From NCBI GenBank assembly GCA_023898605.1, contig CP060230.1, positions 241,662 through 305,661 on the forward strand: 64,000 nucleotides of DNA, written 5' to 3'. The notes below the pieces were generated by a model. It saw only the letters and a program-made list of their open reading frames with translations. It was not told the DNA's origin and did not search any database. Each line of letters opens with the position of its first letter. The first letter of the stretch is position 1. The translations under genes were made by a program, and so were the position numbers. Positions 1-22,450 of the stretch are shown here, piece by piece. This DNA comes from Candidatus Nomurabacteria bacterium. GTDB lineage: Bacteria > Patescibacteriota > Minisyncoccia > Phycocordibacterales > UBA9973.

Positions 1-859
1 AGTCAAAGAACTAGAAGCACGAGGTATAGGTAGACCGTCTACATACGCATCTATTATGAAAACTCTAGAAGATAGAGGTTATGTAACAAAAGAAGGTAGA
101 ACGCTATTCCCTACAGATACTGGAGATGTCGTTTCTACATTTCTAGAAAACAACTTTACAGAATACATATCTGACACATTTACAGCAGAAATGGAAGACG
201 AATTAGACGAAATCGCAGACGGAAAAAGAGAGTACGAAAAAACCCTAGCAGACTTCTATGGTCCATTTACAAAAGAAATAAAAGAAAAAGACAAACTAGA
301 AAAAATCACAAACCTTGGTGACGCTCCAAAAGAGTTTCCTTGTCCAGAATGTAACGCTCCGATGATCATAAAACTCGGAAAAAATGGAAGATTCATGTCA
401 TGTTCCAGATTCCCTGACTGTGCCGGGGCCAGAACAATAGAAGGAAAAATAATGGAAGGACCAAAAGAGATAGGAGAACCTTGTCCGGAATGTGGAGAAA
501 AACATGGAGGAAAACTTGTAATAAGAGAAGGTAGATTCGGAATGTTTATTTCTTGTTCAAGATATCCAAAATGTAAATTCATAAAAGAAGACGAGGAAGA
601 AAAGAAAAAGAAAATGACAGGTGTAGAGTGTCCGGTTTGTAAAAAGGGTGAAATGATGGAACGACGCGGAAGATTTGGAGTATTTTATTCTTGTAGCAAT
701 TATCCAGATTGTAAAAACGCTATCAAGGCAAAGCCAACTGGAAACATATGTCCAATATGCAACTCGCTAATGATGCAAGGCACGAAAACGATTCCAGAAC
801 GTTGTAGTAATAACAAGTGTCCAAATCATCGTCCTGATAAATTAAACAAAGTTAATTAG
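1..859 (+). CDS. topA: DNA topoisomerase I, C-terminal part (5'-partial; gene begins upstream of window)
   Basis: Frame is open from position 2. Translation contains the GIGRPSTYASI TopA motif, followed by several Cys4 zinc-ribbon repeats (CPECNAPM...CSRFPDC, CPECGEKH...CSRYPKC, CPVCKKG...CSNYPDC, CPICNS). Confidence 0.85.
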   Translation, partial: VKELEARGIGRPSTYASIMKTLEDRGYVTKEGRTLFPTDTGDVVSTFLENNFTEYISDTFTAEMEDELDEIADGKREYEKTLADFYGPFTKEIKEKDKLEKITNLGDAPKEFPCPECNAPMIIKLGKNGRFMSCSRFPDCAGARTIEGKIMEGPKEIGEPCPECGEKHGGKLVIREGRFGMFISCSRYPKCKFIKEDEEEKKKKMTGVECPVCKKGEMMERRGRFGVFYSCSNYPDCKNAIKAKPTGNICPICNSLMMQGTKTIPERCSNNKCPNHRPDKLNKVN

Positions 860-903
860 TGCCGAAGTCCCGTATCAAATTGAATTATATTTAATATTCA
901 ATT

Positions 904-990
904 TTGGTACCGGGAGAAGGCACAAAGACTATTCCAGAAAGATGTAGCAACAAAGCATGCCCGATGCACAATCCTCACAAAATGAAAAAG
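904..990 (+). pseudogene. Diverged duplicate of the last ~25 codons of topA (GTKTIPERCSNKACPMHNPHK vs GTKTIPERCSNNKCPNHRPDK)
   Basis: About 70% nucleotide identity with 771-859. It lies directly 3' of the topA stop codon and ends in the terminator hairpin. Confidence 0.4.
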
Positions 991-1013
991 CCCGCAATGC
1001 GGCGGGCTTTTGG
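987..1013. terminator. Rho-independent terminator shared by convergent genes (gcccgc-aatgcg-gcgggc followed by a T-run)
   Basis: Perfect 6-bp GC stem plus U tract between topA (+) and the minus-strand ORF that ends at 1014. Confidence 0.6.
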
Positions 1014-1793
1014 TCAATCAATTTCGTACTCAACACCGAAAGTAAAACTTTCGCGATTGATTTTTCTTGAATATCTACCAAAAACAATATTTACGCATAG
1101 ATACTGTATATTATCGGTCGATACGTAAAGGTTGGTGCATGGCAAATCTCCAATGATGGTTATTATAACGACTTCCCCAATCCCGCGGATAGAAAGTGAT
1201 ATTTTGTCTATATCAGAAAGATCAGCAATCTTTTTCTCCATTGGTCTTTCTTTTATCTTAAACACATTGATAGCTTGCCTAACAATCCTTCCAGATGAAT
1301 CCAAGACTTCTACGTGTATATCTTCCTCAGGATGTAAAATTTTTAGAAACGATCGAAATCCTGGTCGATACAATAGATCTTTTGATTGATCATTTCCGTA
1401 AATCTTAATTATCTCTTTCAAAGATCTTTCATAGACAACAATGTGTCTATGAATATCGAGATTGTATGGCGGCCTGATTTCTTTTGACAAAAGATTCATT
1501 TCTATACCATCTCCATCTACAAAGGGTTCGTACACCAAAAAATCTGATTCTTTGACGAAGCCGTTTCTTGGAAATCCGTCTGGATTCTTGCCATAACACG
1601 GAAAGCAAACAAAACTTCCCCCTCTTTCTATACCATTCCCAAATTCAAAATAGGGGAAAAAAATATCAAAATTAGGAGCAGTACTCCAGTGCTCTATACA
1701 CCCCCCAACTTGTCTTACAAGAATCGAGGCCAAGCCATTTCTTATTTCCATGGTGCAATTTATTTTTCTTAAAATTACCACCAGACGTAACAA
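1014..1793 (-). CDS. hypothetical protein (possible true start at internal Met, MEIRNG, ~1752)
   Basis: Long ORF with no recognisable motif. Convergent with topA and sharing its terminator. Confidence 0.45.
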   Translation of the reverse strand: MLRLVVILRKINCTMEIRNGLASILVRQVGGCIEHWSTAPNFDIFFPYFEFGNGIERGGSFVCFPCYGKNPDGFPRNGFVKESDFLVYEPFVDGDGIEMNLLSKEIRPPYNLDIHRHIVVYERSLKEIIKIYGNDQSKDLLYRPGFRSFLKILHPEEDIHVEVLDSSGRIVRQAINVFKIKERPMEKKIADLSDIDKISLSIRGIGEVVIITIIGDLPCTNLYVSTDNIQYLCVNIVFGRYSRKINRESFTFGVEYEID

Positions 1794-1833
1794 AAATCAA
1801 CAAAAATCGTTTGTTTACTAAAAAACTCTTTTA

Positions 1834-3333
1834 GTGCATACTTTAGTTGTGAAAGAAAATTTCAATCCGCAGGTTGGTGATATATACAACCTGATGAAAG
1901 AAAAACCAAAAGGAGAAGAAAAAACCTTGATCAAAAAGGCTTTTGATTTCGCCGAAAGTGCTCACGAGGGACAGTTCAGGTCTTCTGGTGATCCTTATTT
2001 TGTACACGTTTTTGAAACTGCAAAAAACCTCGCACGATATGAAATGGACGCTACAACAATAGCAGCAGGACTACTCCACGACGTCATGGAAGATACAGAA
2101 ATATCGGCAAAAGAAATAGAAAAAGAGTTTGGAAAAGAAATTCTAGGACTACTAGAAGGCGTAACAAAACTTGGAAAAATAAAATACCGCGGAGAAGAAA
2201 GACACGTAGAGAGTTTAAGAAAGTTTTTCGTAGCTGTCGCCAAGGACTTCCGAGTTCTGGTTATAAAACTTGCAGACAGACTACACAATCTAAAAACACT
2301 AGAATATGTAAAACCAGAAAAACAACAACGCATAGCCCTAGAGTCACTGGAAGTCTATGCCCCGCTTGCCAACCGCTTTGGTATCGGAAAACTAAAAGGA
2401 GAGATAGAGGACGCAGCATTTCCTTTTGCATATCCAGAAGAATACAAAAAAACAGTAAAAATATTTGAAGAAAAATCTGCAACAAGCGAAAAGAGACTCA
2501 AAAAAATAGACCGTGATATCAAAAAGCTTCTTTCCGAAAACGATATCAAGTACCTCAAAATAGATTACAGAGTAAAACACAAATATTCTCTTTGGAAGAA
2601 AATAAAAAGATACAAGGGTGATGTAGAAAGAATTTACGACATCATGGCGCTCAGAGTCATTGTAGACAGCATAGAAGACTGTTATAGAGTCTTGGGCCTA
2701 GTTCATAGCAAGTGGACACCACTACCTGGAAGAATCAAGGATTATATTGCTCTCCCTAAACCAAACGGTTACCAGTCGCTACACACAACTATTTTTACAG
2801 GAGATGGAGAAATAGCCGAAATACAAATACGAACTCTAGAAATGCACGGTAGAGCAGAATACGGTATCGCATCACACTTCGCATACAAAGAAAGACAAAA
2901 TCTAAAAAAGAAGAGTCGGGAAAACAAATTCAATTGGGTCAAAGAAGTTGCAGAAAAAGACGAAGAAACAAAAAGTCACAAAGACTTCCTTTCTACAATC
3001 AAGATGGATGCTTTCAATGATAGAATATTCGTCTTTACTCCAAAAGGCTCTGTCATAGATCTGCCAGAAGGATCTTGTTCTATAGACTTTGCGTACGCTG
3101 TGCACTCAGACATAGGAGACAAAACTTCTAGCGCAAAAGTAAACGGAAAAATGATTTCTATATACGAACCTCTAAAATCTGGAGACATAGTAGAAATAAT
3201 CACAAACAAAAAATCTCACCCTACAAGTAAGTGGCTAGATCATGCAAAAACAACAATGGCAAAAAAGCACATAAACGCCTACCTCAAAGACAACTCTTTG
3301 CTACAAAAATTCCTAAGTTTTGGGAGAAAATAA
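1834..3333 (+). CDS. rel: bifunctional (p)ppGpp synthetase/hydrolase, short Rel/SpoT homolog (HD + RelA_SpoT + TGS; no ACT domain)
   Basis: HD motif (HEGQFRSSGDPYFVHV...LLHDVMEDT), synthetase region (YDIMALRVIV...YQSLHTTIF...IQIRTLEMH), TGS (RIFVFTPKGSVIDLPEGS). GTG start. Confidence 0.85.
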   Translation: MHTLVVKENFNPQVGDIYNLMKEKPKGEEKTLIKKAFDFAESAHEGQFRSSGDPYFVHVFETAKNLARYEMDATTIAAGLLHDVMEDTEISAKEIEKEFGKEILGLLEGVTKLGKIKYRGEERHVESLRKFFVAVAKDFRVLVIKLADRLHNLKTLEYVKPEKQQRIALESLEVYAPLANRFGIGKLKGEIEDAAFPFAYPEEYKKTVKIFEEKSATSEKRLKKIDRDIKKLLSENDIKYLKIDYRVKHKYSLWKKIKRYKGDVERIYDIMALRVIVDSIEDCYRVLGLVHSKWTPLPGRIKDYIALPKPNGYQSLHTTIFTGDGEIAEIQIRTLEMHGRAEYGIASHFAYKERQNLKKKSRENKFNWVKEVAEKDEETKSHKDFLSTIKMDAFNDRIFVFTPKGSVIDLPEGSCSIDFAYAVHSDIGDKTSSAKVNGKMISIYEPLKSGDIVEIITNKKSHPTSKWLDHAKTTMAKKHINAYLKDNSLLQKFLSFGRK

Positions 3334-3334
3334 A

Positions 3335-4390
3335 CTAAAGTGAAAAATTAGAAAGATCATAAAGATCTTGATCGTCTTCTTTTTTCTTTTCTTCTTCGGA
3401 TCGATCATCCATTTGCTCTATAGTTTCATCTTGTGTATTTTCGGAAACTTCTTCTTTTGGCTCATCTGTAACTTCCATCTTTTCTTCAAACTTTTTGAGC
3501 ATTTCATAAGGATCTTTTTTGTCTTTGGTCGAAAGCATTTCTAGAATCATAGACAAGTCTTCGTTGGTGAAGAAATCTATTTCTATCTTGCCACCATTGG
3601 CTCTTTTTTCTATATGAACTCTTGTGCCTAGAGCGTCTTGGAACTTTTGTTCCATTTCACCTATCTCCGGATCGATTATGTATTCTTTCTTTCTAACCTT
3701 GTCGTTGGCAACGCTTCTGGCAATTTTTTCAGCTTCTCTAACAGTTATCTTTTTGTAAATTATTTCTTTGAACAAAACAGTTTGCTCCTCTGGTCTATCA
3801 GAAAGCATAAGAAGGGGTCTTGTGTGACCTTCGGAGATCTTACCCTCAGAAAGCGCATCCAAGATTTCTTGTGGCATAGATAGAAGTCTGAGTGTATTGG
3901 AAACATAAACTCTACTTTTTCCAACCTTCTTCCCTATCTCTGCGTGAGTAAACTTGAACTCGTCTTGTAGTCGCAAAAACGCTCTCGCTCTATCTACTGG
4001 ATTTAGATCTTCTCTTTGTAAGTTCTCGATTATAGCCAGTTCGAGCTTCATCATACTGTCGTCTCCAACTCTTATGATTACTGGAACTTCTTGTAGTCCT
4101 GCTTTTTTAGAAGCTCTCAGTCTTCTTTCACCAGCAATTAGTTCATACTCTGTAACTAGTCCACCTTCTATCGTTTCCTTTTCTATTCTAGAAACAACAA
4201 GTGGCTGAAGCACACCGTATTGTCTTATAGAGTCTGCCAAATCTTCCAGAGCTTTTTCATCAAATTCTCTTCTTGGCTGATAAGGGTTAGGATAGATTTT
4301 GTTTACATCTATAAAAAATATTGAGTTCTCGTATTTTCCTTGCATAATTTTTTCTTGATAATACTGATTGTAGCAGAAAATGGCTCTCAA
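3335..4390 (-). CDS. parB: ParB/Spo0J-like partition protein with long acidic C-terminal tail
   Basis: ParB N-terminal domain (NPYQPR...GVLQPLVV...GERRLRA). True start may be the MQGKYEN Met (~4345). Confidence 0.8.
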   Translation of the reverse strand: MRAIFCYNQYYQEKIMQGKYENSIFFIDVNKIYPNPYQPRREFDEKALEDLADSIRQYGVLQPLVVSRIEKETIEGGLVTEYELIAGERRLRASKKAGLQEVPVIIRVGDDSMMKLELAIIENLQREDLNPVDRARAFLRLQDEFKFTHAEIGKKVGKSRVYVSNTLRLLSMPQEILDALSEGKISEGHTRPLLMLSDRPEEQTVLFKEIIYKKITVREAEKIARSVANDKVRKKEYIIDPEIGEMEQKFQDALGTRVHIEKRANGGKIEIDFFTNEDLSMILEMLSTKDKKDPYEMLKKFEEKMEVTDEPKEEVSENTQDETIEQMDDRSEEEKKKEDDQDLYDLSNFSL

Positions 4391-4439
4391 AAAAACTTTA
4401 ATTATTAACTAAATTGTGATATAAAAGTCATACCAAACG

Positions 4440-4510
4440 CCCGGGTGGCGGAACTTGCCCCGCCTGAAATAGGCGGGGTTAAGTAGACCGAAGAGACTCC
4501 CGCCCACCTT
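4440..4510 (+). pseudogene. tRNA-Leu-like 5' fragment (gcccgggtggcggaa) carrying a 21-nt hairpin insertion (ccccgcc-tgaaata-ggcgggg); not a foldable tRNA
   Basis: First 15 nt match the acceptor/D-arm start of the adjacent tRNA-Leu(CAA). The rest lacks anticodon and T arms. Confidence 0.4.
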
Positions 4511-4568
4511 GACTTTGTTGGTTATAAATATCAAATACATACAAGAAGTATTAAAATTAATTTGTGTT

Positions 4569-4650
4569 TGCCGCGGTGGCGGAATTGGTAGACGCGCACG
4601 ACTCAAAATCGTGTGAGGCAACTCATGAGGGTTCGATTCCCTCCCGCGGC
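4569..4650 (+). tRNA. tRNA-Leu(CAA)
   Basis: Acceptor gccgcgg/ccgcggc, D-arm GCGGAAUUGGUAGAC, anticodon loop cuCAAaa, long variable arm, T-arm gagggTTCGATTccctc. Confidence 0.85.
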
Positions 4651-4684
4651 ACAAATATAAAACAGTCAAGACAAAGTCGGGCAG

Positions 4685-4732
4685 GCAAAATCGTGTGAGG
4701 CAACTCATGAGGGTTCGATTCCCTCCCCGGGC
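4685..4732 (+). repeat. Direct duplicate of the 3' half of tRNA-Leu(CAA) (anticodon loop to acceptor end), with the acceptor changed to ccccgggc
   Basis: About 45 nt identical to 4607-4650, lying 35 nt downstream of the intact tRNA. Confidence 0.7.
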
Positions 4733-4738
4733 ACAAAA

Positions 4739-4762
4739 AAACAGCGCTTTTTAAGCGCTGCT
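4739..4762. terminator. Bidirectional terminator hairpin (cagcgc-tttttaa-gcgctg)
   Basis: Palindrome plus A/T tracts between the tRNA cluster (+) and the minus-strand ORF ending at 4751. Confidence 0.5.
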
Positions 4763-4990
4763 GTCATTTCCTTGTTTTTCACGATAACCATTCATCTCTT
4801 GTTCAAAGATGAGATCTATATCGGCCATACCAGAAACATTTGTCGCGAGTCTTTTCGCTAAACGAAAAGCAAGTTCTATTGCTTCAATTTCTTTTTCTCT
4901 GCCGGGTATCTGCGGAACACTGGCGACTCTGTGCTCTTTTATGGGATCAAGAAACGTATCAACTCGGAACTTATTGCCCTGATCAACCAT
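4751..4990 (-). CDS. hypothetical small protein (79 aa)
   Basis: ORF with clean flanks. No recognised motif. Confidence 0.4.
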   Translation of the reverse strand: MVDQGNKFRVDTFLDPIKEHRVASVPQIPGREKEIEAIELAFRLAKRLATNVSGMADIDLIFEQEMNGYREKQGNDSSA

Positions 4991-5075
4991 GTTTTTCGTT
5001 TTTTACGATACTACCTCAAAAATAGAATTTTAGCAAAACATAGAAAAAGATTTCTAGATATGCTTTACTACCCAT

Positions 5076-5909
5076 ATGAAAAAACCATTTGTTATATCAA
5101 TAGTTGGACCAACTTCTTCTGGAAAGACTGGTTTTTCTATAGAACTAGCAAAAAAACTAAAAAAGATAGGCATAAACTCCGAGATAGTTTCTGCTGACTC
5201 AAGACAAGTATACAAGGGTCTTGATTTACTTTCTGGTAAAGTCACAAAGAAAGAAATGTCTGGGGTCCCTCATCACATGCTAGATGTAGCAAATCCAAAA
5301 AAAACTTATTCTGTTTCGCTTTACAAAAAAGATGCTGAAAGAAAAATAAACGAAATTCTTTCAAGAGGAAACTTACCTATAATAGTAGGAGGAACAGGAT
5401 TTTATATAGACGCAATAACAAAAGGCGTGGTGCTACCTCAAGTAGCGCCAGACAAAAACTTGCGAGATAAGCTTTCTAATAAAACTGAAAAAGAGCTATT
5501 CTCTATGCTCAAAAAATTGGACAAAAACAGGGCAGAGACAATCGATTTCAAAAACAAAGTTAGACTAATAAGAGCCATAGAAATAGCAAACTCTATAGGC
5601 AAAGTTCCCAAGACAAAATCTAATCCGAGATACGAAGTAGAAACTATATATTTAGATTTAGAAGATGGTGTTTTGAAAGAAAAAATAAAACAAAGGATTA
5701 TTTCTAGAATAAAATCAGGAATGATAAAAGAAGCAGAAAACTTACACAAAAAAGGCCTTTCTTGGAAAAGGATGGAAGGGCTTGGTCTTGAGTGTAGGTT
5801 TGTTTCTCAATATCTACAAGGAAAAATATCAAAACAAGAAATGATAGAGTCCCTAGAAAAAGCTACTTGGCAATACGTCAAACGTCAAAGAACTTGGTTT
5901 AAGAGATAA
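5076..5909 (+). CDS. miaA: tRNA dimethylallyltransferase
   Basis: P-loop GPTSSGKT. SADSRQVYKGLDLLSGKVT motif typical of MiaA. Confidence 0.85.
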   Translation: MKKPFVISIVGPTSSGKTGFSIELAKKLKKIGINSEIVSADSRQVYKGLDLLSGKVTKKEMSGVPHHMLDVANPKKTYSVSLYKKDAERKINEILSRGNLPIIVGGTGFYIDAITKGVVLPQVAPDKNLRDKLSNKTEKELFSMLKKLDKNRAETIDFKNKVRLIRAIEIANSIGKVPKTKSNPRYEVETIYLDLEDGVLKEKIKQRIISRIKSGMIKEAENLHKKGLSWKRMEGLGLECRFVSQYLQGKISKQEMIESLEKATWQYVKRQRTWFKR

Positions 5910-5911
5910 AA

Positions 5912-6325
5912 TTATTTTGTGCAAAAATAAGATCCATATTCATGTATACACTCTTTAAATTTTTTCAAAGTGGAGTCTATTTCCTCCTTAGAATAATATG
6001 TATTTGAAACTTCATTAACTTTATCAATATATCTTTTATAACCATCACCTCTATTATAAGCATAATCAACGACTATAAAAACTGCAATCGCAGTAAGTGC
6101 TATAGCAATACCGGTCGTTAAATTAAGCATCTTATTACTATAGCCGTCCATTCTATTTTCAAAATTATTGTATCGCCTTTCAAGGTTATTATATTCATAT
6201 TCTAAGTTACTAAATTTTTCATTTAGTTCTTTGTTTGTATAATTAGCTTTCTTTATAACTACTTTATTAGACGATTGATTACTTAAATCATTTTTTATTT
6301 CTATTGTCATTTTATGATTTTTCAA
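5912..6325 (-). CDS. hypothetical coiled-coil protein with C-proximal transmembrane helix
   Basis: Asn/Glu-rich heptads and the TM segment GIAIALTAIAVFIVV. Confidence 0.45.
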   Translation of the reverse strand: MKNHKMTIEIKNDLSNQSSNKVVIKKANYTNKELNEKFSNLEYEYNNLERRYNNFENRMDGYSNKMLNLTTGIAIALTAIAVFIVVDYAYNRGDGYKRYIDKVNEVSNTYYSKEEIDSTLKKFKECIHEYGSYFCTK

Positions 6326-6692
6326 CTAAAGTAAGGTAGTTTTCTTCTTCCATTTGATAACCTCCAACTTTTATATTAATTTTATATTTTGTAAAATCTT
6401 CAAACTTAATATTATCAAAATAAGTTATTAGAATATTTCCGTCATCATTTTCAATAGAAATTTCAGATTTTGCTGTTCCAATAACTCTATTGTTTTTTGT
6501 GTTTTGTATCTCTATTTCTTCTATAAACTTTCCTTCTTTACTTGAGGTAATATGCGTTACAACAAAAAATGGTTTGTAGTTGATAGGAACTTCACTACTT
6601 GTTATTGTAGTAAAAATATTTATAAGACTATATTTTCCAGAATTGTCATGTATAAAGTTTTCACATACTTGTAAAGATTTTAATTTAAACAT
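6312..6692 (-). CDS. hypothetical protein
   Basis: ORF overlapping the downstream gene by 14 nt (operon-like). Confidence 0.4.
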   Translation of the reverse strand: MFKLKSLQVCENFIHDNSGKYSLINIFTTITSSEVPINYKPFFVVTHITSSKEGKFIEEIEIQNTKNNRVIGTAKSEISIENDDGNILITYFDNIKFEDFTKYKINIKVGGYQMEEENYLTLVEKS

Positions 6693-6809: not shown

Positions 6810-6810
6810 T

Positions 6811-6910
6811 AAAACATTTTGTCTTACAAAATGTTCGGGCGACCTTTATTTATAAAGGTTTAGCCCGAACAATAAAGATACTATAGCAAAATAGCCCCGA
6901 TTGGGCTACT
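6811..6910 (-). promoter_or_regulatory. Three consecutive hairpins between rpmG and tRNA-Trp (aacattttg/caaaatgtt; nested gttcgggc...gcccgaac around acctttat/ataaaggt; tagccc/gggcta)
   Basis: Perfect inverted repeats read directly. Possible processing or termination signals in an rpmG-tRNA-Trp transcript. Confidence 0.3.
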
Positions 6911-7656: not shown

Positions 7657-7807
7657 ATAAAGAGATTATATCAAGTATTTGATTTTTGGTGTAAAGTTGT
7701 TATACTGTCCCTACAAAATATGCGTCCCGCACCATAGGCGGGTAAAGGTGGCAGTCTGTCCTAGACAGATAAAAAGTATAAAAATACTAAAACACTTGCA
7801 TAAATAT

Positions 7808-7891
7808 GCGTCGGTGGCAGAGTGGTCAATTGCACTTGACTGTAAATCAAGCGCCCTTAGGGCTACGTAGGTTCAAATCCTACCCGGCGCA
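7808..7891 (+). tRNA. tRNA-Tyr(GUA)
   Basis: Acceptor gcgucgg/ccggcgc (one G-U), anticodon loop cuGUAaa, long variable arm, T-arm guaggTTCAAAUccuac. Confidence 0.85.
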
Positions 7892-8004
7892 CATTAAAAA
7901 AATTCCAAATTCTTTTGGGATTTTTTTAATGCACACCATAAAAGGAATATCCTACTGTGTCCGTCCGTAGTCTTCTACGGAGGAGGACCCGGCGCACAAA
8001 AACA

Positions 8005-8030
8005 AAAAATCCCCATGAGGGGATTTTTTG
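8005..8030. terminator. Bidirectional terminator (aaaaaatcccc-atga-ggggatttttt)
   Basis: Perfect hairpin flanked by A- and T-runs, between tRNA-Tyr (+) and clpB (-). Confidence 0.65.
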
Positions 8031-8031
8031 T

Positions 8032-10728
8032 TTATACTAGAACATCATCTTTTATTTTTTTCTTTGTTCTTTTTCCTCCAGTTTTTTTGTTTTCGATTAT
8101 TAGGTTTTCAGCCTTCTCATCTATCACAACTGTGTCGTTCTTTAGAAGTTCTCCTTTTATAATCATAGAAGCAACTGGTGAAAGAATTTTGTTTTGGATT
8201 ATTCTATTTAGTGGTCTTGCACCATAGTGCGGGTCATAACCCTCTTTTGCTAGATACTCTAGAGCACTGTTTGAGATCTCTACTTCTATACCTTTGTCTT
8301 TTAGTCTTTGGGTCATCTTCTCTAGTCTTATCTCTACGATTTCTCTTATCACTTCTTTTGACAAGATATCAAACACTATTGTTTCATCTACACGGTTTAG
8401 GAATTCTGGTCTAAAGAAGTCTTTTAGCGCACCATCTACTTTGTCTTTCATGTTTTTGTAATCCTGCTTTTCGGAATTGTTTGAGAATCCCATAGACTCC
8501 ATCTTGTCGATAAATTGTGATCCCAAGTTACTTGTCATGATTATGATTGTATTCTTGAAGTTTACAACTCTACCTTTTCCATCTGTTAGCCTTCCTTCAT
8601 CTAGTACCTGAAGAAGTATATTGAACACCTCTGGGTGCGCCTTCTCGATCTCATCAAACAAAACTACAGAGTATGGTCTATGTCTTACAGCTTCAGTAAA
8701 CTGTCCACTTTCATCATAACCAACATATCCAGGAGGCGAACCTACTAGTTTTGAAACACTGTGTCTTTCCATGTACTCTGACATATCTACTCTTATCAGT
8801 GCTTTTTCATCATTGAACATAAACTCTGCTAGAGTTTTAGTAAGCTCTGTTTTACCAACACCTGTTGGACCTAGGAAAATAAATGATCCTATTGGTTTGT
8901 TCGGGTCACTTATACCAGCACGAGAGCGTCTCACTACGTCTGCGATTTTCTCGATTGCCTCGTCTTGTCCAACAACACGTTTCTTCAGCTCGTCTTCCAT
9001 GCGAGAAAGCTTCTCTCTTTCTTCTTCTAGCATCTTCGACAGTGGTATCCCTGTCCAACGAGAAACAACTTCAGCTATATCTTCTTCGTTGATTTCTTCT
9101 TTCAAGATTCTTCTAGATTTCTGAAGTTTTTTTAGTCTGGTCATTTTCTGATCAAGTTCTTTTTCTAGAACTGGAATTTTTCCATATCTTATTTCTGCAG
9201 CTTTACCGAGATCGCTTCTAGCTTCAGCACTTTCTGCTTCTAGTCTTATAGACTCTAGTTCCTTCTTGATCTTTGATATAGCAGTAAGAAGTTCTTTTTC
9301 GTTCTTCCATCTGATCTCTATATCAGAAGTCTTTTCTTTCAGGTTTGCGATTTCTTTGTTGATTTCATCAATCCTTTCTTTTGTTTTTTTATTTGTTTCT
9401 CCACCAGATTTTTTCTTTGAATCTATTTCTTTCTTGAGGGCTTCTTTTTCTATCTCATATCTCATGATTTTTCTATGGGCGTCTTCTAGAACTTGGGGTT
9501 TATTCTCAAGAGCAATACGAAGTGACGAAGAAGCTTCGTCGATTAGATCGACTGCTTTGTCTGGTAGAAATCTGTTTGTTATATATCTTGTCGAAAAACT
9601 AACAGCCGCAACTATAGCGTCATCAGTTATACGAACTCCATGATAAAGCTCATACTTTTCTTTCAAACCTCTCAAGATTGCTACAGTGTCTTCTACACTT
9701 GGTTCATCTACAAACACAGGTTGAAAACGTCTAGCAAATGCTGGGTCTTTTTCTATGTGTTTTTGGTATTCTTTTAGAGTTGTTGCACCTATAGCTCTTA
9801 GTTCACCTCTAGCAAGAGCAGGTTTTAGCATGTTTGAAGCATCCATAGCTCCTTCTGCTGCACCAGCACCAACTATTGTGTGTATCTCGTCGATAAATAG
9901 GATTATAGTTCCATCTGCCTTTTCCATTTCTTTCATTACACCCTTTAGTCTTTCTTCGAACTCGCCCCTGTATTTTGTTCCAGCAAGAAGGGAACCGATG
10001 TCTAGAGAAACTATCTCTTTGTTTTTTAGAGATTCAGATACATCCCCTTTTGCTATCCTCTGGGCAAGACCTTCTACAGCAGCAGTTTTTCCTGTACCAG
10101 CTTCTCCGATAAGTATAGGATTGTTTTTTGTTCTACGAGAAAGAATCTGCATGATACGCATTATTTCTGTATCTCTTCCTATAACAGGATCTAGCTTGTC
10201 TTCACGAGCCATGTCTGTCAGGTTTCTTGTGTACTTTGAAAGAAGTCTAAATCTTTTTTCTTTTGGATTTGTATCTATCTTTCCGCTTCTTATATCTTCA
10301 AGTATTGTGAGAGCCTCGTCTTTTGATATTTTGAACTTCGCTAGAAAATCTCTTACATCATCTGAAGAATCTAGTATCGCGATAAAAAGGTGTTCTGTCG
10401 ATATAAACTCATCTTTCAAAAATCTTGCGACTTTTCCAGATTGATCGAGAACTTGTGCCAAGTCTGGTGTAACGTATATCTGAAAAGATGGAGAAAGAGT
10501 TTGTGATCTTTCTGGATCTTCTATTATGTCGATTACAGTTTCAGAAAGAAGTTCAACATCTACATTCATTTTTTCTAGTATAGAAATAACGATACTTTCT
10601 TCTTGCATCAAAAGAGCCGCCAACATGTGATATGTGTTTACATGGTTTTGACCACGCTCGACAGCTAGTTCATGAGAGCGCTTGATTGCTTCTTTTGCTT
10701 TTGTTGTGAAATTGTTGAATGGTTGCAT
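8032..10728 (-). CDS. clpB: ATP-dependent chaperone ClpB (Clp_N, two AAA+ modules, coiled-coil M domain)
   Basis: Two Walker A motifs (GEAGTGKTA, GPTGVGKTE), middle coiled coil, 898 aa. Confidence 0.9.
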   Translation of the reverse strand: MQPFNNFTTKAKEAIKRSHELAVERGQNHVNTYHMLAALLMQEESIVISILEKMNVDVELLSETVIDIIEDPERSQTLSPSFQIYVTPDLAQVLDQSGKVARFLKDEFISTEHLFIAILDSSDDVRDFLAKFKISKDEALTILEDIRSGKIDTNPKEKRFRLLSKYTRNLTDMAREDKLDPVIGRDTEIMRIMQILSRRTKNNPILIGEAGTGKTAAVEGLAQRIAKGDVSESLKNKEIVSLDIGSLLAGTKYRGEFEERLKGVMKEMEKADGTIILFIDEIHTIVGAGAAEGAMDASNMLKPALARGELRAIGATTLKEYQKHIEKDPAFARRFQPVFVDEPSVEDTVAILRGLKEKYELYHGVRITDDAIVAAVSFSTRYITNRFLPDKAVDLIDEASSSLRIALENKPQVLEDAHRKIMRYEIEKEALKKEIDSKKKSGGETNKKTKERIDEINKEIANLKEKTSDIEIRWKNEKELLTAISKIKKELESIRLEAESAEARSDLGKAAEIRYGKIPVLEKELDQKMTRLKKLQKSRRILKEEINEEDIAEVVSRWTGIPLSKMLEEEREKLSRMEDELKKRVVGQDEAIEKIADVVRRSRAGISDPNKPIGSFIFLGPTGVGKTELTKTLAEFMFNDEKALIRVDMSEYMERHSVSKLVGSPPGYVGYDESGQFTEAVRHRPYSVVLFDEIEKAHPEVFNILLQVLDEGRLTDGKGRVVNFKNTIIIMTSNLGSQFIDKMESMGFSNNSEKQDYKNMKDKVDGALKDFFRPEFLNRVDETIVFDILSKEVIREIVEIRLEKMTQRLKDKGIEVEISNSALEYLAKEGYDPHYGARPLNRIIQNKILSPVASMIIKGELLKNDTVVIDEKAENLIIENKKTGGKRTKKKIKDDVLV

Positions 10729-13358: not shown

Positions 13359-14858
13359 ATGAAAAAAGCTGAAGAAAAAATAATAAAGAGGCCTCCGGTT
13401 GTGGTAGTTATGGGACACGTTGATCATGGAAAATCAACGCTTTTGGACTATATCAGAAGCTCAAACATAGTAGCGGGAGAAGCTGGTGGTATAACCCAGC
13501 ATCTTGGTGCATATGAAATAACTCACAAAACCTCTGAAGGAGATGAAAGAAAGATTACTTTTATCGACACACCAGGACACGAAGCTTTTTCTTCTATGAG
13601 GAGCAGAGGTGCAAATGTAGCCGATATAGGGATACTAATCATCGCAGCAGATGACGGTATAAAAAAACAAACTAAAGAAGCTTACGAGACTATCAAGACT
13701 GCTAACCTTCCATTTGTTGTAGCGATAAATAAAATAGACAAGCCAGATGCAAACGTAGACAGAATAAAAACAGAACTTATGGAAATGGGTGTTTTTCTAG
13801 AAGGATTTGGTGGAACAACACCATATGCAGAAATATCTGCAAAAACAGGTTCTGGAATAGACTCTCTCATGGATATGATAATCCTTACAGCAGATCTAGA
13901 AGACTGGAAGGGAGATCTCGGTAAAAAGGGCGAAGGAGTCGTCATAGAAACAAACCTAGATACCAAGAGGGGTATAACTGCTGTATTGGTTGTAAAAGAT
14001 GGAAAGATAGAAAAAGGTGACTATATAGTTGTAGGAGATGCTATAGCTCCTACAAGAATTTTTGAAGACACTAGCGGAAAGCAAATCAAAGAAGCTCGCT
14101 TCTCTACTCCAATAAAAATAACTGGTTTCGATAAAGAACCAGAAGCTGGAGAAATATTTGAAACATACGAAAACAAAAAAGACGCAGAAAAAGCCGCAAA
14201 AGAAAATGCAGAAAACCAAACCAAATCTGAAGGCTTTGAAGAAAAAGAAGGGCAATACGCTATCCCTATAGTTATAAAAACAGATGTTCGCGGAACATGC
14301 GAAGCTATAGAGAAAAAAATCAAAGAACTAGAGCAAGATACCGTTACTTATAAAATCGTTCATAGCGGAACAGGTTCTATAAACGAATCAGATATAAAAA
14401 GATTCCCTGCTGGAGAAGATGGCATAATCGTTGGCTTCAACTCAAAACTAGACAATGCTGCAAAAGAAGCACTCGAAGGAACAAAGATAGACGTTCAACT
14501 TTTCGATATAATCTACAAACTAACTGAATGGTTAGAGGAAGAAATGGAAAAAAGAAGACCAAGACAAGAAGTAGAGGAAATTGTCGGAAAAGTAAAAATC
14601 ATAAAAGTATTCAATCAGTCCAAAAACAAGCAAGTTGTTGGAGGAAAAGTCATAGAGGGCTATATAAAATCTAACTCAAAAATCAAAATAGATAGGAGAG
14701 AAAATATCTTGGGAATAGGAGAAATAGACAAACTAGAAGCGGCCAGAGCAAAAGTAGGCGAAGTCAAAGAAGGTACAGAGTGCGGTATGATGATCGACTC
14801 AAGAGTCGAGATTGCACCAGGAGACGTACTTGTAGTTACAGAAAGAAAAACTATATAA
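13359..14858 (+). CDS. infB: translation initiation factor IF-2 (short form lacking the N-terminal domains)
   Basis: G-domain motifs GHVDHGKST, DTPGH, NKID. Followed by rbfA. Confidence 0.9.
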   Translation: MKKAEEKIIKRPPVVVVMGHVDHGKSTLLDYIRSSNIVAGEAGGITQHLGAYEITHKTSEGDERKITFIDTPGHEAFSSMRSRGANVADIGILIIAADDGIKKQTKEAYETIKTANLPFVVAINKIDKPDANVDRIKTELMEMGVFLEGFGGTTPYAEISAKTGSGIDSLMDMIILTADLEDWKGDLGKKGEGVVIETNLDTKRGITAVLVVKDGKIEKGDYIVVGDAIAPTRIFEDTSGKQIKEARFSTPIKITGFDKEPEAGEIFETYENKKDAEKAAKENAENQTKSEGFEEKEGQYAIPIVIKTDVRGTCEAIEKKIKELEQDTVTYKIVHSGTGSINESDIKRFPAGEDGIIVGFNSKLDNAAKEALEGTKIDVQLFDIIYKLTEWLEEEMEKRRPRQEVEEIVGKVKIIKVFNQSKNKQVVGGKVIEGYIKSNSKIKIDRRENILGIGEIDKLEAARAKVGEVKEGTECGMMIDSRVEIAPGDVLVVTERKTI

Positions 14859-14862
14859 AACT

Positions 14863-15189
14863 ATGCAAGACAAAAAAGGCTACGAAGAAATAATAAGAGA
14901 GGTTGTTGCAAAATGGATCTCAAAAGAAGCGAGCAGTGCTTCGCTTATTACTGTGACTGGAGTATCTTATGAGAAAAAAGGAAACAAATGTTTCGTCCAT
15001 ATAACAGTAATGCCAGAAGAAAAAGAAAAAGCTGTTCTAGATTTTCTAAAAAGAAACGTTGTTGAACTCAGAAAGCATGTTGGTAGTGTTGTAAAAAATC
15101 ACAAAGTTCCTTTTATAGAAGTGCACTTAGACGCGGGTGAGAAAAATCGTTATCGAATAATAGAACTTCTAGAGCAAGACAAAGATTGA
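14863..15189 (+). CDS. rbfA: ribosome-binding factor A
   Basis: Size and position immediately after infB. KH-like RbfA pattern. Confidence 0.7.
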   Translation: MQDKKGYEEIIREVVAKWISKEASSASLITVTGVSYEKKGNKCFVHITVMPEEKEKAVLDFLKRNVVELRKHVGSVVKNHKVPFIEVHLDAGEKNRYRIIELLEQDKD

Positions 15190-15290
15190 GAATAAGGGTT
15201 TTATTTGCTATATTTTCTTTATTCTTCTTGTAAGATTTGGATAGAGTGGTGAAGATAAAAAAAGGATCTGCAACCCCACACAAACAAAGG

Positions 15291-15364
15291 AGGTGCAGGC
15301 CGGATTCGAACCGGCGCATAGCGGTTTTGCAGACCGCCGCGTTGACCATCTTCGCCACTGCACC
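15291..15364 (-). tRNA. tRNA-Cys(GCA)
   Basis: Reverse complement: acceptor ggugcag/cugcacc, anticodon loop cuGCAaa, T-arm ccgGTTCGAATCcgg. Confidence 0.85.
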
Positions 15365-15500
15365 ATAAAAACAATTAGGAGTTCACTATACCAAAATTGA
15401 AGTGATACTTCAAACCGTTTGTGAAGGGGCGAATCCAAGGACTCGCACCTCCCCACCTGCCCGAATAGACGACCTAGTTTAGGCGGGACTGCCCGGGTGA

Positions 15501-15534
15501 TGGAGTAGGTAGACATAGGGGACTTAAAATCCAT
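15501..15534 (+). repeat. Duplicated 5' half of tRNA-Leu(UAA) (acceptor replaced by gcccggg; D-arm and anticodon stem 5' side retained), directly abutting the intact gene
   Basis: gcccgggtgatggagtaggtagacataggggacttaaaatcca versus the gene gctgggatgatggaataggtagacataggggacttaaaatcccc. Confidence 0.7.
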
Positions 15535-15620
15535 GCTGGGATGATGGAATAGGTAGACATAGGGGACTTAAAATCCCCAGGCAATTAAATGCCGTGCGGG
15601 TTCGATTCCCGCTCCCAGCA
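15535..15620 (+). tRNA. tRNA-Leu(UAA)
   Basis: Acceptor gcuggga/ucccagc, anticodon loop cuUAAaa, long variable arm, T-arm gcgggTTCGATTcccgc. Confidence 0.85.
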
Positions 15621-15687
15621 CAAGATTTTTAGATTTGCGAGTTCCCTGTGTGCCGACATAAAACGCGTGCTTTTAAATTCTAACCTA

Positions 15688-16416
15688 ATGAAAATAATTA
15701 AAAACAAAAAGTGTTTGATATCAATAATAACCTTATTTATATTGGGGTCTATATTTTTTGCTATTGATCAATATAAGTCATACAAAAACACAAAAAGAAA
15801 CGTTGAGAAATCAGAAAGAGAATTTAATATAGAAAACAACAAGATAAATAATACTGACCCGGATGAGTCAAGTAACTCTATTGATACCAAAGAAAGTTCT
15901 GAACCCAAAAAATCAGTAGAAGACTTTGTGTTTGATACCAATTTTTTAGATGGAGACTGGAATATACAAGAAAATGATGGATCTCAGGAATACAAAGAAA
16001 TGACAAAAGTATATGAATCAAACTCTCATAATTACATAAACGACATAAAAGGAACTCTTTGGTTTACCCAAAAAGAAAACCTTGATTATCAAAAATCTAT
16101 TTCATATGAAAAAGAACTTTCCGAATATTATGATTTGTATTTAAAAGAATACGGCTGGGAAAAATACATATCAATCCCAGAGCAAAACTTGGAACTAGTG
16201 CCGTATTTATACGATTCGATAAATGTAACAGGTTATGGATATTTATCGATTGATAAAAATAACAATATAAGGATTTTGAATATTTCTATAGAGTCTTCTG
16301 GGATTATATCTCCTCAAGATAATTTCCCCCCAGAAATACTTCCCCCTTTCTACTTAGTAGTCAAAATCTTTATAAGCAACCCCTTGTCTATAAATGAAAT
16401 AATAAATGAAATCTAG
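15688..16416 (+). CDS. hypothetical membrane-anchored, Asn-rich secreted protein (start reset to MKIIKNKK; the ORF-track start overlaps the tRNA)
   Basis: N-terminal TM/signal anchor. Low-complexity ectodomain. Confidence 0.5.
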   Translation: MKIIKNKKCLISIITLFILGSIFFAIDQYKSYKNTKRNVEKSEREFNIENNKINNTDPDESSNSIDTKESSEPKKSVEDFVFDTNFLDGDWNIQENDGSQEYKEMTKVYESNSHNYINDIKGTLWFTQKENLDYQKSISYEKELSEYYDLYLKEYGWEKYISIPEQNLELVPYLYDSINVTGYGYLSIDKNNNIRILNISIESSGIISPQDNFPPEILPPFYLVVKIFISNPLSINEIINEI

Positions 16417-16446
16417 ATTGGGATAAAGAAACTTTATTTTATTAAT

Positions 16447-16474
16447 TTGACACCAAAAGTCTTTTTGCTATAAT
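16447..16474 (+). promoter_or_regulatory. Near-consensus sigma70-type promoter (TTGACA, 16-nt spacer, TATAAT)
   Basis: Read directly. A terminator at 16504-16536 follows only ~35 nt downstream. Confidence 0.4.
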
Positions 16475-16503
16475 TAAAGTACACAGTGGCTTAGGCCTCC
16501 GAG

Positions 16504-16536
16504 AAAGCCCCGCATTAGCGGGGCTTTCGATTTTCA
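16504..16536. terminator. Rho-independent terminator (agccccgc-atta-gcggggct plus T-run)
   Basis: Perfect 8-bp GC stem. The same stem sequence recurs at 45005-45033. Confidence 0.6.
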
Positions 16537-16559
16537 TAAAATTTCCTTAAATTTTAATC

Positions 16560-16915
16560 TCATTGGTTCAAATTCATCATTTGAGACCGTGCCTATTTTA
16601 CGAAGTAACCTCTTTGAGTCCAAAACTCTAGTTTGATCCAAAAGAGCAAAACCCTGAATATTATTATGGGTTATTTTAGATTGAAATTTTTCTAACTTTT
16701 TTTTTGGTAGATAAAGGTAGACAAATAAACGTATCTTGACTTAACTTTTTAAGAATTATTATTGGTCTTTCAAAATTATCACCTCTTCCGTCCTGTTCTC
16801 TTCCTATGTTTATACCAAAACACGCCCACCAAATTTCACGACGATGAAAAAGTTTTTTAGTGCCATTATTATTTATATTCTTTTTTTCCTTGATCCAAGA
16901 ATCAAAATTTTTCAT
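16560..16915 (-). pseudogene. mazF: MazF/PemK-family toxin gene interrupted by a frameshift in an A9/T9 homopolymer (16697-16705)
   Basis: N-terminal 79 aa (RREIWWACFGINIGREQDGRGDNFERPIIIL) is MazF-like. The C-terminal continuation (ITHNNIQGFALLDQTRVLDSKRLLRKIGTVSNDEFEP) is in another frame downstream of the poly-A tract. Confidence 0.6.
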
Positions 16916-17084
16916 TATTACTTATAATACCACTTTTATTTTATTTAGATATAAATTTAATATGATTTCGTAAATACATTTACATAACAAGTTGCTTGCA
17001 GTAATTCCCGCCCTGGGCACACAATAGATAACAAAAAGACCCATACGGGTCTTTTTGTTATGTGCTCGTACTGAGCTTATCGAA

Positions 17085-17104
17085 GTGCGCGGGAGAGGAC
17101 TTGG
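17085..17104 (-). repeat. Copy of the 3' end (T-arm 3' side plus acceptor 3' strand) of tRNA-Leu(UAG), ~160 nt downstream of the gene
   Basis: gtgcgcgggagaggacttgg is identical to 17262-17281. Confidence 0.6.
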
Positions 17105-17262
17105 TCAGGAGTTCCTTCGAAAAATCTCAGGACTCACGACCCTGGCTCGGTCACATCACTCACTTTGTTCGTGATGGCTTCGCAACCTCCGCCTTTCAAG
17201 TCCCCTCTCGTGGTAAAAAATAAATCACCCAATGCTTTCGCATTGGGTTCATTATTATTTTG

Positions 17263-17344
17263 TGCGCGGGAGAGGACTTGAACCTCCACGGATTGCTCCA
17301 CTAGTTCCTAAGACTAGCGCGTCTACCAATTTCGCCACCCGCGC
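17263..17344 (-). tRNA. tRNA-Leu(UAG)
   Basis: Reverse complement: acceptor gcgcggg/cccgcgc, anticodon loop cuUAGga, long variable arm, T-arm ggaggTTCAAGTccucu. Confidence 0.8.
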
Positions 17345-17522
17345 ATGTTTATTAAAAAATTTTAATTATTTTTGCATTTAATTTATACCACAAAACAAAT
17401 ATATTTGTGCGCCCATTCGTAGCTTTACCTTGTTCTTCGTAGCCTTGGCAAAGAAGAAGCGAAGGAGGGCCACCCGCGCATATAAAGTTTTCAAAACTTT
17501 ATTGGATTATACAAATCCAATG

Positions 17523-17596
17523 TCCGCCCACTTGGACTCGAACCAAGGACCAATCGCTTAAGAGGCGAGTGCTCTACCAGCTGAGCTATGGGCGGT
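17523..17596 (-). tRNA. tRNA-Lys(CUU)
   Basis: Reverse complement: acceptor ccgccca/ugggcgg, D-arm AGCUCAGCUGGUAGAGC, anticodon loop cuCUUaa (C-U mismatch at the top of the stem), T-arm cuuggTTCGAGTccaag. Confidence 0.75.
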
Positions 17597-17607
17597 AATT
17601 TCAAAAC

Positions 17608-17755
17608 CCATAGCGAAGCCAAAAGCTGCCTGTCCACCGTAGCCCGTCAGGGCGAAGGTGGAAGCTATGGGCGGATTTGTATCGTTCCATAGCGAAGCCA
17701 AAAGCTGCCTGTCCACCGTAGCCCGTCAGGGCGAAGGTGGAAGCTATGGGCGGAT
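17608..17755. repeat. Two tandem copies (period 79 nt) of a 68-nt hairpin unit whose end equals the first 12 nt of tRNA-Lys (ccgcccatagct)
   Basis: Units 17608-17675 and 17687-17755 are essentially identical. Each holds a nested hairpin (ccacc-gtagcccgtcagggcgaa-ggtgg) between ccatagc...gctatgg arms. Confidence 0.75.
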
Positions 17756-19709: not shown

Positions 19710-19719
19710 GGAGGACTAA

Positions 19720-22447: not shown

Positions 22448-22450
22448 ATT

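Follow-up and report, generated by a model that had tools for sequence, protein, structure and literature searches.

Displaced tRNA gene ends and a family of structured tRNA-end elements in Patescibacteria

The tRNA genes in a 64-kb stretch of the chromosome of a Candidatus Nomurabacteria bacterium (contig CP060230.1, positions 241,662 to 305,661) are flanked by partial copies of their own ends. We followed these copies within this stretch (the window, which is all of the source genome that was covered) and in related bacteria, where they recur as a family of small tRNA-end elements carrying one direct and one inverted copy of the neighbouring gene end. The window has a G+C content of about 37%, encodes the proteins ParB, MiaA, MsrA, ClpB and RbfA, and also carries a 16S rRNA gene and eight tRNA genes. 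Seven of the eight are called by ARAGORN, and the eighth is a tRNA-Asn gene split by an intron.

Copies of tRNA ends at the tRNA genes of the window

A preliminary description of the window, made from its letters alone, had listed fragments of tRNA ends beside most of these genes; all of them are present, with small errors in their coordinates. Their position is not random. Searching for exact matches of at least 11 nt, with the own flanks of a tRNA taken as 400 nt, we found 7 matches in about 7 kb of own flanks and 7 in about 570 kb elsewhere, so that the tRNAs of the window match their own flanks about 80 times more frequently than the rest. The tRNA-Trp gene is the only one in the window without copies of its own ends in its flanks. 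Upstream of it lies a strongly folding nested hairpin (6810-6880, minus strand, z -5.7) that contains no tRNA copy. The features at the tRNA-Leu(CAA) and tRNA-Tyr genes are as follows.

4439-4508 (+): displaced 5' part of an older tRNA-Leu(CAA), positions 1-34; fold z -3.3
4570-4652 (+): intact tRNA-Leu(CAA), nested between both parts of the older gene
4686-4775 (+): displaced 3' part of the older tRNA-Leu(CAA), anticodon to 3' end; tRNA part 4686-4734
7716-7754 (+): copy of the tRNA-Tyr leader and first 13 nt, split by a 20-nt hairpin, CCGCACCATAGGCGGGTAAA
7808-7892 (+): tRNA-Tyr(GUA), called by ARAGORN
7893-8038 (+): decayed 3'-type element of tRNA-Tyr, made up of terminator 1, distal 3'-end copy and terminator 2

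At tRNA-Leu(CAA), the 5' fragment GCCCGGGTGGCGGAA occupies 4439-4453, 116 nt upstream of the intact gene. It is split by a GC hairpin at 4458-4478, and the remainder, TAGACCGAAGAGACTC, extends to 4499 in the anticodon loop. The adjoining CCGCCCACC (4500-4508) complements positions 6-13 of the fragment and closes a hairpin ending at 4508, 61 nt upstream of the gene; the earlier distance of 60 nt fits this hairpin end and not the fragment itself. Downstream, the 3'-half duplicate was recovered at 4686-4734 (47/49 identical, 33 nt from the gene), followed by a hairpin resembling an intrinsic terminator. The acceptor strand GCCCGGG of the 4439 fragment pairs with CCCGGGC in 4686-4734, whereas the acceptor strands of the intact gene, GCCGCGG/CCGCGGC, do not match this pairing. 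Read from their sequences, the two fragments are one older tRNA-Leu(CAA) gene, split in its anticodon loop by a segment of about 185 bp that has the new gene inside it.

The tRNA-Tyr gene is preceded by the direct repeat AAATATGCGTC, with copies at 7716-7726 and 7802-7812. The 11-bp repeat had been noticed before, with its first copy placed at 7726-7736; the corrected position makes the insert 75 and not 65 bp long. A further segment, GGTGGCAG at 7747-7754, extends the 5' copy to 19 nt with a 20-nt hairpin inside. The distal 3' end consists of ATCCTAC at 7949-7955, a 32-nt hairpin insert and CCCGGCGCAC at 7988-7997, the last being the acceptor-end copy reported earlier. Exactly two copies of a small hairpin, CCGC..ATAGGCGG, are present in the window (4460-4476 and 7727-7741; zero expected by chance), both inside a displaced tRNA 5' fragment and on the tRNA strand; in the loci of relatives the hairpin is rare.

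Further copies are found in a cluster that includes the genes for tRNA-Leu(UAA), tRNA-Leu(UAG) and tRNA-Lys.

15430-15452 (+): tRNA-Cys 3' end (CGAATCC..GCACCTCC) copied with an interruption, upstream of its gene and in the opposite orientation; weak, z -0.9
15491-15533 (+): displaced 5' half of an older tRNA-Leu(UAA), 34/35 over the core
15535-15621 (+): intact tRNA-Leu(UAA), acceptor GCUGGGA/UCCCAGC; ARAGORN
15622-17002 (+): 1.4-kb islet from the new tRNA-Leu(UAA) gene to the old 3' end; open reading frames (ORFs) and Pfam scan
17003-17062 (+): 3' end of the old tRNA-Leu(UAA) from the T loop, then a terminator; ATTCCCGCCCTGGGCAC
17082-17215 (-): type-1 tRNA-end hairpin element downstream of tRNA-Leu(UAG); z -3.4
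17262-17344 (-): tRNA-Leu(UAG); ARAGORN
17405-17480 (-): upstream mini-element of tRNA-Leu(UAG), with the first 11 nt, a hairpin and GCGCAC of the 3' end; weak, z -1.5
17522-17595 (-): tRNA-Lys(CUU); ARAGORN
17604-17755 (-): two tandem Lys units with a 79-nt period, three-way-junction hairpins; z -4.1 and -2.7

The duplicated 5' half of tRNA-Leu(UAA), known from the preliminary description, has the acceptor strand GCCCGGG, the form common in relatives. This strand pairs with that of the old 3' end, which reads CCCTGGGC at 17003-17022 and is followed by a terminator. The additional Leu-like 3' fragment noted earlier is this old end, located at 17003-17024 and not slightly upstream as had been given. 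ATTCCCGC is the only stretch common to the old and new 3' ends. The old fragments do not abut, positions 43 to 57 or so being missing, and they bracket the new gene together with the 1.4-kb islet, whose ORFs encode a hypothetical membrane protein (15688-16416) and a truncated PemK-like protein (16676-16915, minus strand). In both tRNA-Leu(CAA) and tRNA-Leu(UAA), the acceptor stem of the new gene differs from that of the old one by compensatory changes.

Both ends of tRNA-Leu(UAG) are copied. The element downstream of the gene is built, in order, of an inverted arm, two inner hairpins and a direct 19-nt copy of the tRNA 3' end (17085-17103, 19/19 identical), close to where this copy had been placed; the 5'-end copy is equally real (11/11 identical) and lies at 17469-17479, not at the position first assigned to it. 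The two tandem Lys units, each ending in a tRNA copy as described before, contain identical 69-nt sequences at 17608-17676 and 17687-17755, 79 nt being the period and not the unit length. The 5' arm of each unit equals the first 12 nt of tRNA-Lys.

Collapsed or chimeric repeats in the assembly could in principle produce such copies as an artefact, and contigs from other samples do break at the tRNA cluster and the Lys units. The stretch 15336-17725 is not spanned by any contig among the independent assemblies because these break in this repeat-rich stretch; its neighbours, 13425-15335 and 17726-20345, are matched at 100% by other assemblies. Exact-protein look-ups toward the tRNA cluster in other strains likewise lead to contigs that stop at the repeats. 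Four independent metagenome assemblies nevertheless cover positions 1-6336 at 99.5-99.9% identity without gaps. This region includes the whole Leu(CAA) arrangement, whose fragments are thereby reproduced, and the same architecture recurs at about 150 loci of unrelated assemblies. We therefore give the artefact next to no credence. Contigs of two other samples fuse window positions 44472-44613 straight to 17885, just past the Lys units, and one further contig lacks 20361-21179. These differences are strain-level rearrangements beside the tRNA cluster.

The tRNA-Asn gene has an element of another type at its 5' boundary.

34695-34769 (+): 5'-type three-way-junction hairpin of tRNA-Asn; z -5.0
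34775-35464 (+): tRNA-Asn(GUU), split by a group I intron of 618 nt (34809-35426)

In this hairpin, the leader and the first 9 nt of tRNA-Asn are copied in the 5' arm, to which the 3' arm is complementary. The 14-bp direct repeat CATATTCCGCGGTA stands at 34695 and 34770, flanking the hairpin insert as first described. The gene itself was missed by both ARAGORN and the Rfam gathering run. Its intron matches RF00028 with 62 bits, is inserted at anticodon position 35/36 and contains an HNH-type ORF (34842-35162) with a visible CxxC..CANCH motif, for which Pfam gives no HNH call. Group I introns of this tRNA-Asn 35/36 class have recently been described for Patescibacteria (PMC13011429). A 66-nt direct repeat (35462-35527 and 36874-36939, 97% identical), the first copy of which starts within the final bases of tRNA-Asn, encloses 1.4 kb with a PIN-domain ORF (36254-36808) and a 110-amino-acid ORF on the opposite strand; this segment looks like a toxin-antitoxin islet flanked by attachment (att) sites.

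Hairpins at gene boundaries with flanking repeats, as at tRNA-Tyr and tRNA-Asn, had suggested a small mobile hairpin that duplicates its target. In its classical form, a miniature inverted-repeat transposable element (MITE) would have fixed terminal inverted repeats and a target-site duplication at the tRNA boundary. The terminal arms are instead copies of the local tRNA and differ at each locus, and the repeats range from 11 to 49 nt (11, 12, 14, 19, 35 and 49 in the window). Target duplication gives no inverted arm, and the inserts of the window share no sequence. A common MITE-like family, for which the preliminary description had proposed a test, did not emerge among them: the hairpins are mostly unrelated, with 2 of 21 pairwise comparisons at p of about 0.005, and both of these pairs stem from the small CCGC..ATAGGCGG hairpin. 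A family of hairpin elements at tRNA ends does exist, as described below; that it is a classical MITE with target duplication is very unlikely.

A tRNA-end element family in relatives and metagenomes

The nearest ClpB relatives are 65-75% identical and all come from metagenome-assembled genomes of Patescibacteria (labelled Paceibacteria, Parcubacteria, Nomurabacteria or "Saccharibacteria"). As a sample of relatives we used 80 species-level ClpB loci that were not selected for elements; they contain the same tRNA genes because synteny around ClpB is kept, and the order and orientation of the tRNA cluster vary among them. With other tRNAs masked, the density of exact matches (at least 12 nt) that a tRNA has in its own flanks is about 48 times that found elsewhere, and matches of at least 16 nt number 27 in own flanks versus 4 elsewhere. 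Three classes can be told apart among them: direct copies of the 5' end upstream, direct copies of the 3' end downstream, and inverted copies of the 3' end, which also lie downstream but nearer the gene.

From the examples in relatives we read two core types and one recurrent architecture. In the window, downstream elements follow the order gene, terminator, complement, inner hairpins, direct copy, and upstream elements the order direct copy, inner hairpins, complement, gene, so that in both types the copy identical to the tRNA is on the far side of the element from the gene. In the full anatomy read from relatives and metagenomes, a downstream element starts, on the tRNA strand, with the trailer and a bidirectional terminator, or with a GAACGAAGUGAGG-like motif instead, and continues with the complement of the acceptor 3' strand and a hairpin, P0, with the conserved loop AACUGCUU. 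The complement of the T-stem 3' strand and T loop comes next, followed by hairpin P2, the linker UACC(U/C)G, hairpin P3 with a GUAA loop and finally the direct copy. In the window, three-way-junction folds (z -2.7 to -5.0) are predicted for the Lys units, the Asn unit, the Leu(CAA) 5' fragment and the element after tRNA-Leu(UAG).

Covariance models were built for both core types; the E-values they return are rough. Model R1 (type 2) finds 32 copies in relatives at E up to 0.002. In metagenomes, it scores 88 copies on 80 contigs, a set gathered by a 20-base core pattern beforehand and thus selected for the core. A tRNA lies within 450 nt upstream of 63 of these 88, on the same strand in all 63 cases and representing 31 isoacceptors; 10 of the other 25 sit at a contig edge. 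Of the 38 copies that model R2 (type 1) detects, 34 follow a tRNA in the same orientation. The model matches the window at 17094-17207 (52.8 bits, E 6e-12), a score that is not independent because this sequence is among the 15 used for the model. In total there are about 150 copies, nearly all just downstream of a tRNA gene and on its strand, at 31 tRNA types. Scans of the window and of three relatives' loci (L021, L045 and L062) against Rfam 15 by E-value gave no match on the elements. Full-text literature searches returned no description of the family, and the paper on Patescibacteria tRNA introns does not mention repeats or hairpins (PMC13011429).

The family is patchily distributed in the ClpB sample, with elements at 40 of 247 tRNAs (16%) in 25 of 67 loci and at 12 of 54 Tyr orthologues. 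Relative to the nearest tRNA, 61 elements of this sample are on the same strand and none on the opposite one. On contigs that had been chosen for holding an element, and hence with a selection bias, 72 of 110 tRNAs have one, including all four tRNAs in each of L118 and L155. The boundaries of the direct arm are well defined: of 37 elements, 29 have it beginning at T-loop position 56/57 and 21 have it ending within 0 to 2 nt after the called gene end; longer extensions are confined to tandem arrays. The corresponding copies in the window start at the anticodon for tRNA-Leu(CAA) and in the T loop for tRNA-Leu(UAG), tRNA-Leu(UAA) and tRNA-Tyr.

In an alignment of 112 sequences, which was fitted to the model and so favours structure, 95.5% of cells are paired; the figure is 67% for shuffled sequences and 33-49% for slid controls. 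Compensatory changes occur in 11 of 12 pairs. Among type 1 elements, all 15 sequences have G.U at one pair, and a second pair is split 8:7 between G-C and G.U. These pairs show that the folding strand is the tRNA-sense strand.

Units of the 5' type are less frequent: 26 of 362 tRNAs have a direct copy (at least 9 nt) of their own 5' start within 300 nt upstream, against an estimated expectation of about 2. Some of these units contain a promoter-like sequence (L050), and some share both the P0 loop and the GAACAAAGUGAGG motif with the 3' type (L039, whose relative L033 has an empty site). Pseudo-5' halves of tRNA-Cys end at anticodon position 35 in five species.

These regularities bear on the idea that the copies are neutral debris, left by local duplication and hairpin-mediated template switching at tRNA hot spots and then decaying, with neither family nor function. 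The direct-inverted-direct order and long perfect palindromes centred on terminators do resemble template-switch products, tRNA-cluster order and orientation vary among relatives, and the hairpins of the window are mostly unrelated to each other. Debris would not be expected to have conserved cores with compensatory changes at 31 tRNA types in many species, fixed junction positions, or near-identical cores at different tRNAs. For type 1 and type 2 elements this explanation is largely refuted, and for the copies as a whole we judge it improbable.

Arms, cores and the direction of insertion

The two parts of an element behave differently. Arms track the adjacent tRNA, even among Tyr orthologues with differing T stems (GAAGG, GUAGG, GUUGG and GCAGG), and the inverted arm is complementary to the direct arm by Watson-Crick pairing; it does not copy the tRNA's own 5' strands. 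Cores are independent of tRNA type: their median identity is 0.64 between elements at the same tRNA and 0.65 between elements at different tRNAs. At one locus (L052) the cores of the Lys and Leu(UAA) elements are identical, Arg and Glu elements on different contigs are 98% identical, and a single tRNA can precede an array of differing core types. A correlation of arm decay was uninformative, a sub-variant having its direct arm split by an extra hairpin. Orphan elements of Tyr type are found 3-8 kb from the Tyr gene in two relatives (L064, 11997-12079; L073, 16127-16219), located at the same gene end in both. In a third (L020, about 8160-8300), the tRNA-Tyr at the conserved site is internally deleted, with GCGTCGGTGGTAGAG joined to ACCCGGCGCAC, and an element follows.

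The empty site that the preliminary description suggested looking for at orthologous tRNA loci was found at tRNA-Tyr of L034. There, the tRNA-Tyr 3' end with its terminator is 87% identical to window positions 7987-8038, and the window has about 102 extra nt between tRNA-Tyr and the distal copy. Because the empty site matches the distal copy and terminator 2, the distal Tyr copy of the window is the ancestral end. The comparisons show that DNA was inserted at the termini of tRNA genes with the terminus duplicated and the displaced terminus paired with an inverted copy. They also show that compensatory change maintains the sense-strand fold and that tRNA loci exchange cores or receive them from one another. 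The anatomy itself, its spread over the lineage, a fixed polarity, the limits of the repeats and one pair of an empty and a filled site were likewise observed.

We favour, with about even confidence, the explanation that small non-coding cassettes, or in two cases larger inserts, have recombined into tRNA genes and that the partial tRNA copies are their arms. Entry would occur in the T loop, in the anticodon loop or at the 5' end of a tRNA gene, with the incoming DNA supplying either a substitute for the part it displaces or a complete new tRNA gene. Since the incoming DNA brings the replacement, the old end would come to lie on the far side of the insert, keeping its terminator when displaced downstream and its leader when displaced upstream. 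With an inverted copy of the end between the gene and the displaced end, the tRNA-sense strand can fold into a three-way-junction hairpin whose basal stem reproduces the T stem and acceptor strand of the tRNA. The direct repeat would act as an att-type identity block, which must reach the tRNA 3' end because the gene must stay intact. By analogy, the active form may be a folded strand, as in integron attC or CTX attP, or else an RNA. We infer that the cassettes are spread by an enzyme that recombines them in the form of folded single strands or small circles. Arms for a new tRNA could arise by gene conversion from the adjacent gene together with selection for pairing, or by copying at insertion; either would do. 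The window holds one intact member of the family (after tRNA-Leu(UAG)), decayed or idiosyncratic ones at tRNA-Tyr, tRNA-Lys, tRNA-Asn and upstream of tRNA-Leu(UAG), and nested replacements at tRNA-Leu(CAA) and tRNA-Leu(UAA). The earlier proposal of integration and excision scars at tRNA att sites is partly supported: it agrees with the direct repeats, the original-looking terminators of the distal copies and the empty Tyr site, and lacks an integrase in the islets examined.

Several points weigh against this explanation. A Pfam search of the window islets at tRNA-Leu(UAA) and tRNA-Asn found no recombinase, transposase or integrase (no genome-wide search was made), and the 100-250-nt cassettes contain no ORF. 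An excised or circular form was not seen, and the single comparison of an empty with a filled site is between species that are about 25-30% diverged. At L021 and L023, the terminator that looks ancestral is the proximal one, so the ancestral end is not always distal. Reciprocal crossing-over in the T loop of a different tRNA would destroy that tRNA, and the model therefore does not account for the arrival of cassettes at 31 isoacceptors with matching arms. The hairpins of the window other than 17082-17215 match neither R1 nor R2. About one third of the elements have no terminator between themselves and the tRNA and are therefore probably transcribed, and GNRA-type loops and tandem G.A motifs would also fit a role as RNA.

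Such a role is the core of a second explanation, in which the elements, passed on vertically, act in cis as functional RNAs within the trailers and leaders of tRNAs, with arms kept by gene conversion and pairing selection and cores homogenised by gene conversion. They might be processing or termination signals, insulators, or decoys for factors that bind the acceptor/T helix. Strong covariation, conserved loops, the invariant sense-strand G.U pair, co-orientation with the tRNA in all scored cases and arms that follow the T-stem differences of Tyr orthologues all speak for this, as do the many elements within the trailer with no terminator in between. The 72 of 110 tRNAs with elements, and the full sets of L118 and L155, also point this way, yet they are drawn from contigs chosen for holding an element, and in the unbiased sample the distribution is patchy at 16% of tRNAs. 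A strong bidirectional terminator often separates tRNA and element and leaves no room for a promoter. Arms have decayed in many copies, orphan copies lie far from any tRNA gene, and the copies of the window are mostly degenerate. We regard this explanation as the main rival, possible but less likely than the cassettes.

A more unusual reading, which we advance tentatively and consider less likely than not, though with a substantial chance, is a new, self-tailoring class of elements. A shared core (P0, P2 and P3, or A/B hairpins) would move among tRNA genes and gain its arms, one direct and one inverted, from the local tRNA terminus, so that the folded strand imitates the acceptor/T helix of its neighbour. 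It could be a selfish cassette, perhaps a rod-like single strand or circle of about 200 nt, or an RNA device specific to each tRNA (a decoy, or a processing or quality-control signal) in these ultra-small Patescibacteria.

A number of other candidates were rejected. Taking L021 and L023 as a clean insertion fails, homology not being resumed downstream. A retro-origin from mature tRNA, in the manner of a primer-binding site, does not fit distal copies that lack CCA unless it is gene-encoded and a homology that can enter the trailer. The inverted arm is not a duplicate of the tRNA 5' strands left by a deleted tRNA, as it is Watson-Crick paired where the tRNA has G.U and includes the reverse-complemented T loop. 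CUGA/GAAA-like junctions are off the consensus of the hammerhead and other known small ribozymes and have no Rfam match. Breakage at TTCGAA restriction sites was dismissed, the junction position being the same in T loops without the site. Enrichment of the GCGAAGC mini-hairpin is only about 2-fold and was dropped, and 14 pattern matches in viral contigs are attributable to chance, none scoring with the model.

Four features of the window lie apart from the tRNA-end elements. On the minus strand, 55761-56302 matches class B RNase P RNA with 55 bits, under the gathering score of 97, and covers 542 nt compared to 365 model positions; judging by this match, it is probably a divergent or insert-bearing RNase P RNA. 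Direct repeats of 116 nt and 81 nt, with three copies each and 61-87% identity, are spread among short ORFs at 37467-39820, near an ORF with an NYN domain (39219-39698, minus strand). Four small tandem ORFs at 21532-23320 (minus strand) have counterparts on a near-identical contig with weak Pfam matches to T4SS-pilin/TrbC. A 26-nt inverted repeat (60782-60807 and 62466-62491, 96% complementary) brackets the 16S rRNA gene and is probably a processing stem; no 23S gene is adjacent to the 16S gene within the window.

Significance and comparison with known systems

tRNA genes are classic landing sites of mobile DNA, where the usual footprint is one direct repeat beside an integrase-encoding island. 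The family described here marks tRNA genes as sites of repeated insertion in a streamlined lineage that carries gene-less, strongly structured cassettes with arms copied from the tRNA they adjoin, in some contigs at up to most of the tRNA genes. If the elements are mobile, they would represent a recombination route, perhaps via folded single strands, with no integrase gene resident in the element, and they would explain the rearrangements of tRNA clusters and the gene replacements in Patescibacteria. If they are RNAs, they would form an extensive family that lacks annotation and is connected with tRNA maturation, in organisms for which little RNA biology has been worked out. On the practical side, the elements break assemblies and yield pseudo-tRNA calls, and should be masked or annotated.

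Integrative elements such as tyrosine-integrase islands and prophages leave att duplications in tRNA genes, with sublocations in the T loop and the anticodon loop. The tRNA-end elements similarly show a direct repeat of the tRNA 3' part from the T or anticodon loop to the gene 3' end, a distal copy that is the original, and arrays at a single tRNA. In contrast, their inserts measure only about 100-250 nt and are devoid of genes, an integrase included; they have structured cores in common, and an inverted copy of the repeat is always present. Mycobacteriophages with tRNA-dependent lysogeny interrupt the tRNA gene of the host through a short common core, do not restore it, and bring along a substitute tRNA of the same isotype (PMC10865867). 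The tRNA-Leu(CAA) and tRNA-Leu(UAA) loci resemble this arrangement in that the old genes are disrupted and the insert has a new gene of the same isotype, with ATTCCCGC as the short stretch common to the old and new tRNA-Leu(UAA); they differ in that the islets have no phage genes or tyrosine integrase and the inserts are 0.2 and 1.4 kb.

Small hairpin repeats of other kinds, such as repetitive extragenic palindromic (REP) sequences and REPINs, MITE-type repeats, and mitochondrial GC-cluster and double-hairpin elements, have constant ends and are not tied to one gene class. Like these, the tRNA-end elements are small GC-rich hairpins dispersed in an AT-rich genome, often behind genes; unlike them, they have locus-specific arms and occur only at tRNA gene ends. 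Plant mitochondrial t-elements and the E. coli 3'ETS-leuZ sponge are structured RNAs beside tRNAs or in their trailers that do not copy the neighbouring tRNA. Here, too, a structure beside a tRNA mimics the acceptor/T helix or sits in the trailer; the element stem is not a canonical tRNA 3' end because the discriminator base is paired. Integron attC and the attP of CTX phage are recombination sites that act as folded single strands. They share with the tRNA-end elements an imperfect inverted repeat around a variable centre, a strand-specific fold and arrays of short cassettes beside a fixed site. The R''/R' boxes of attC (RYYYAAC / GTTRRRY) are absent from the aligned arms as read by eye, and no integron integrase is known here, no genome-wide IntI search having been made. 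In contrast to integron attC, the arms of these elements copy the tRNA beside which they lie.

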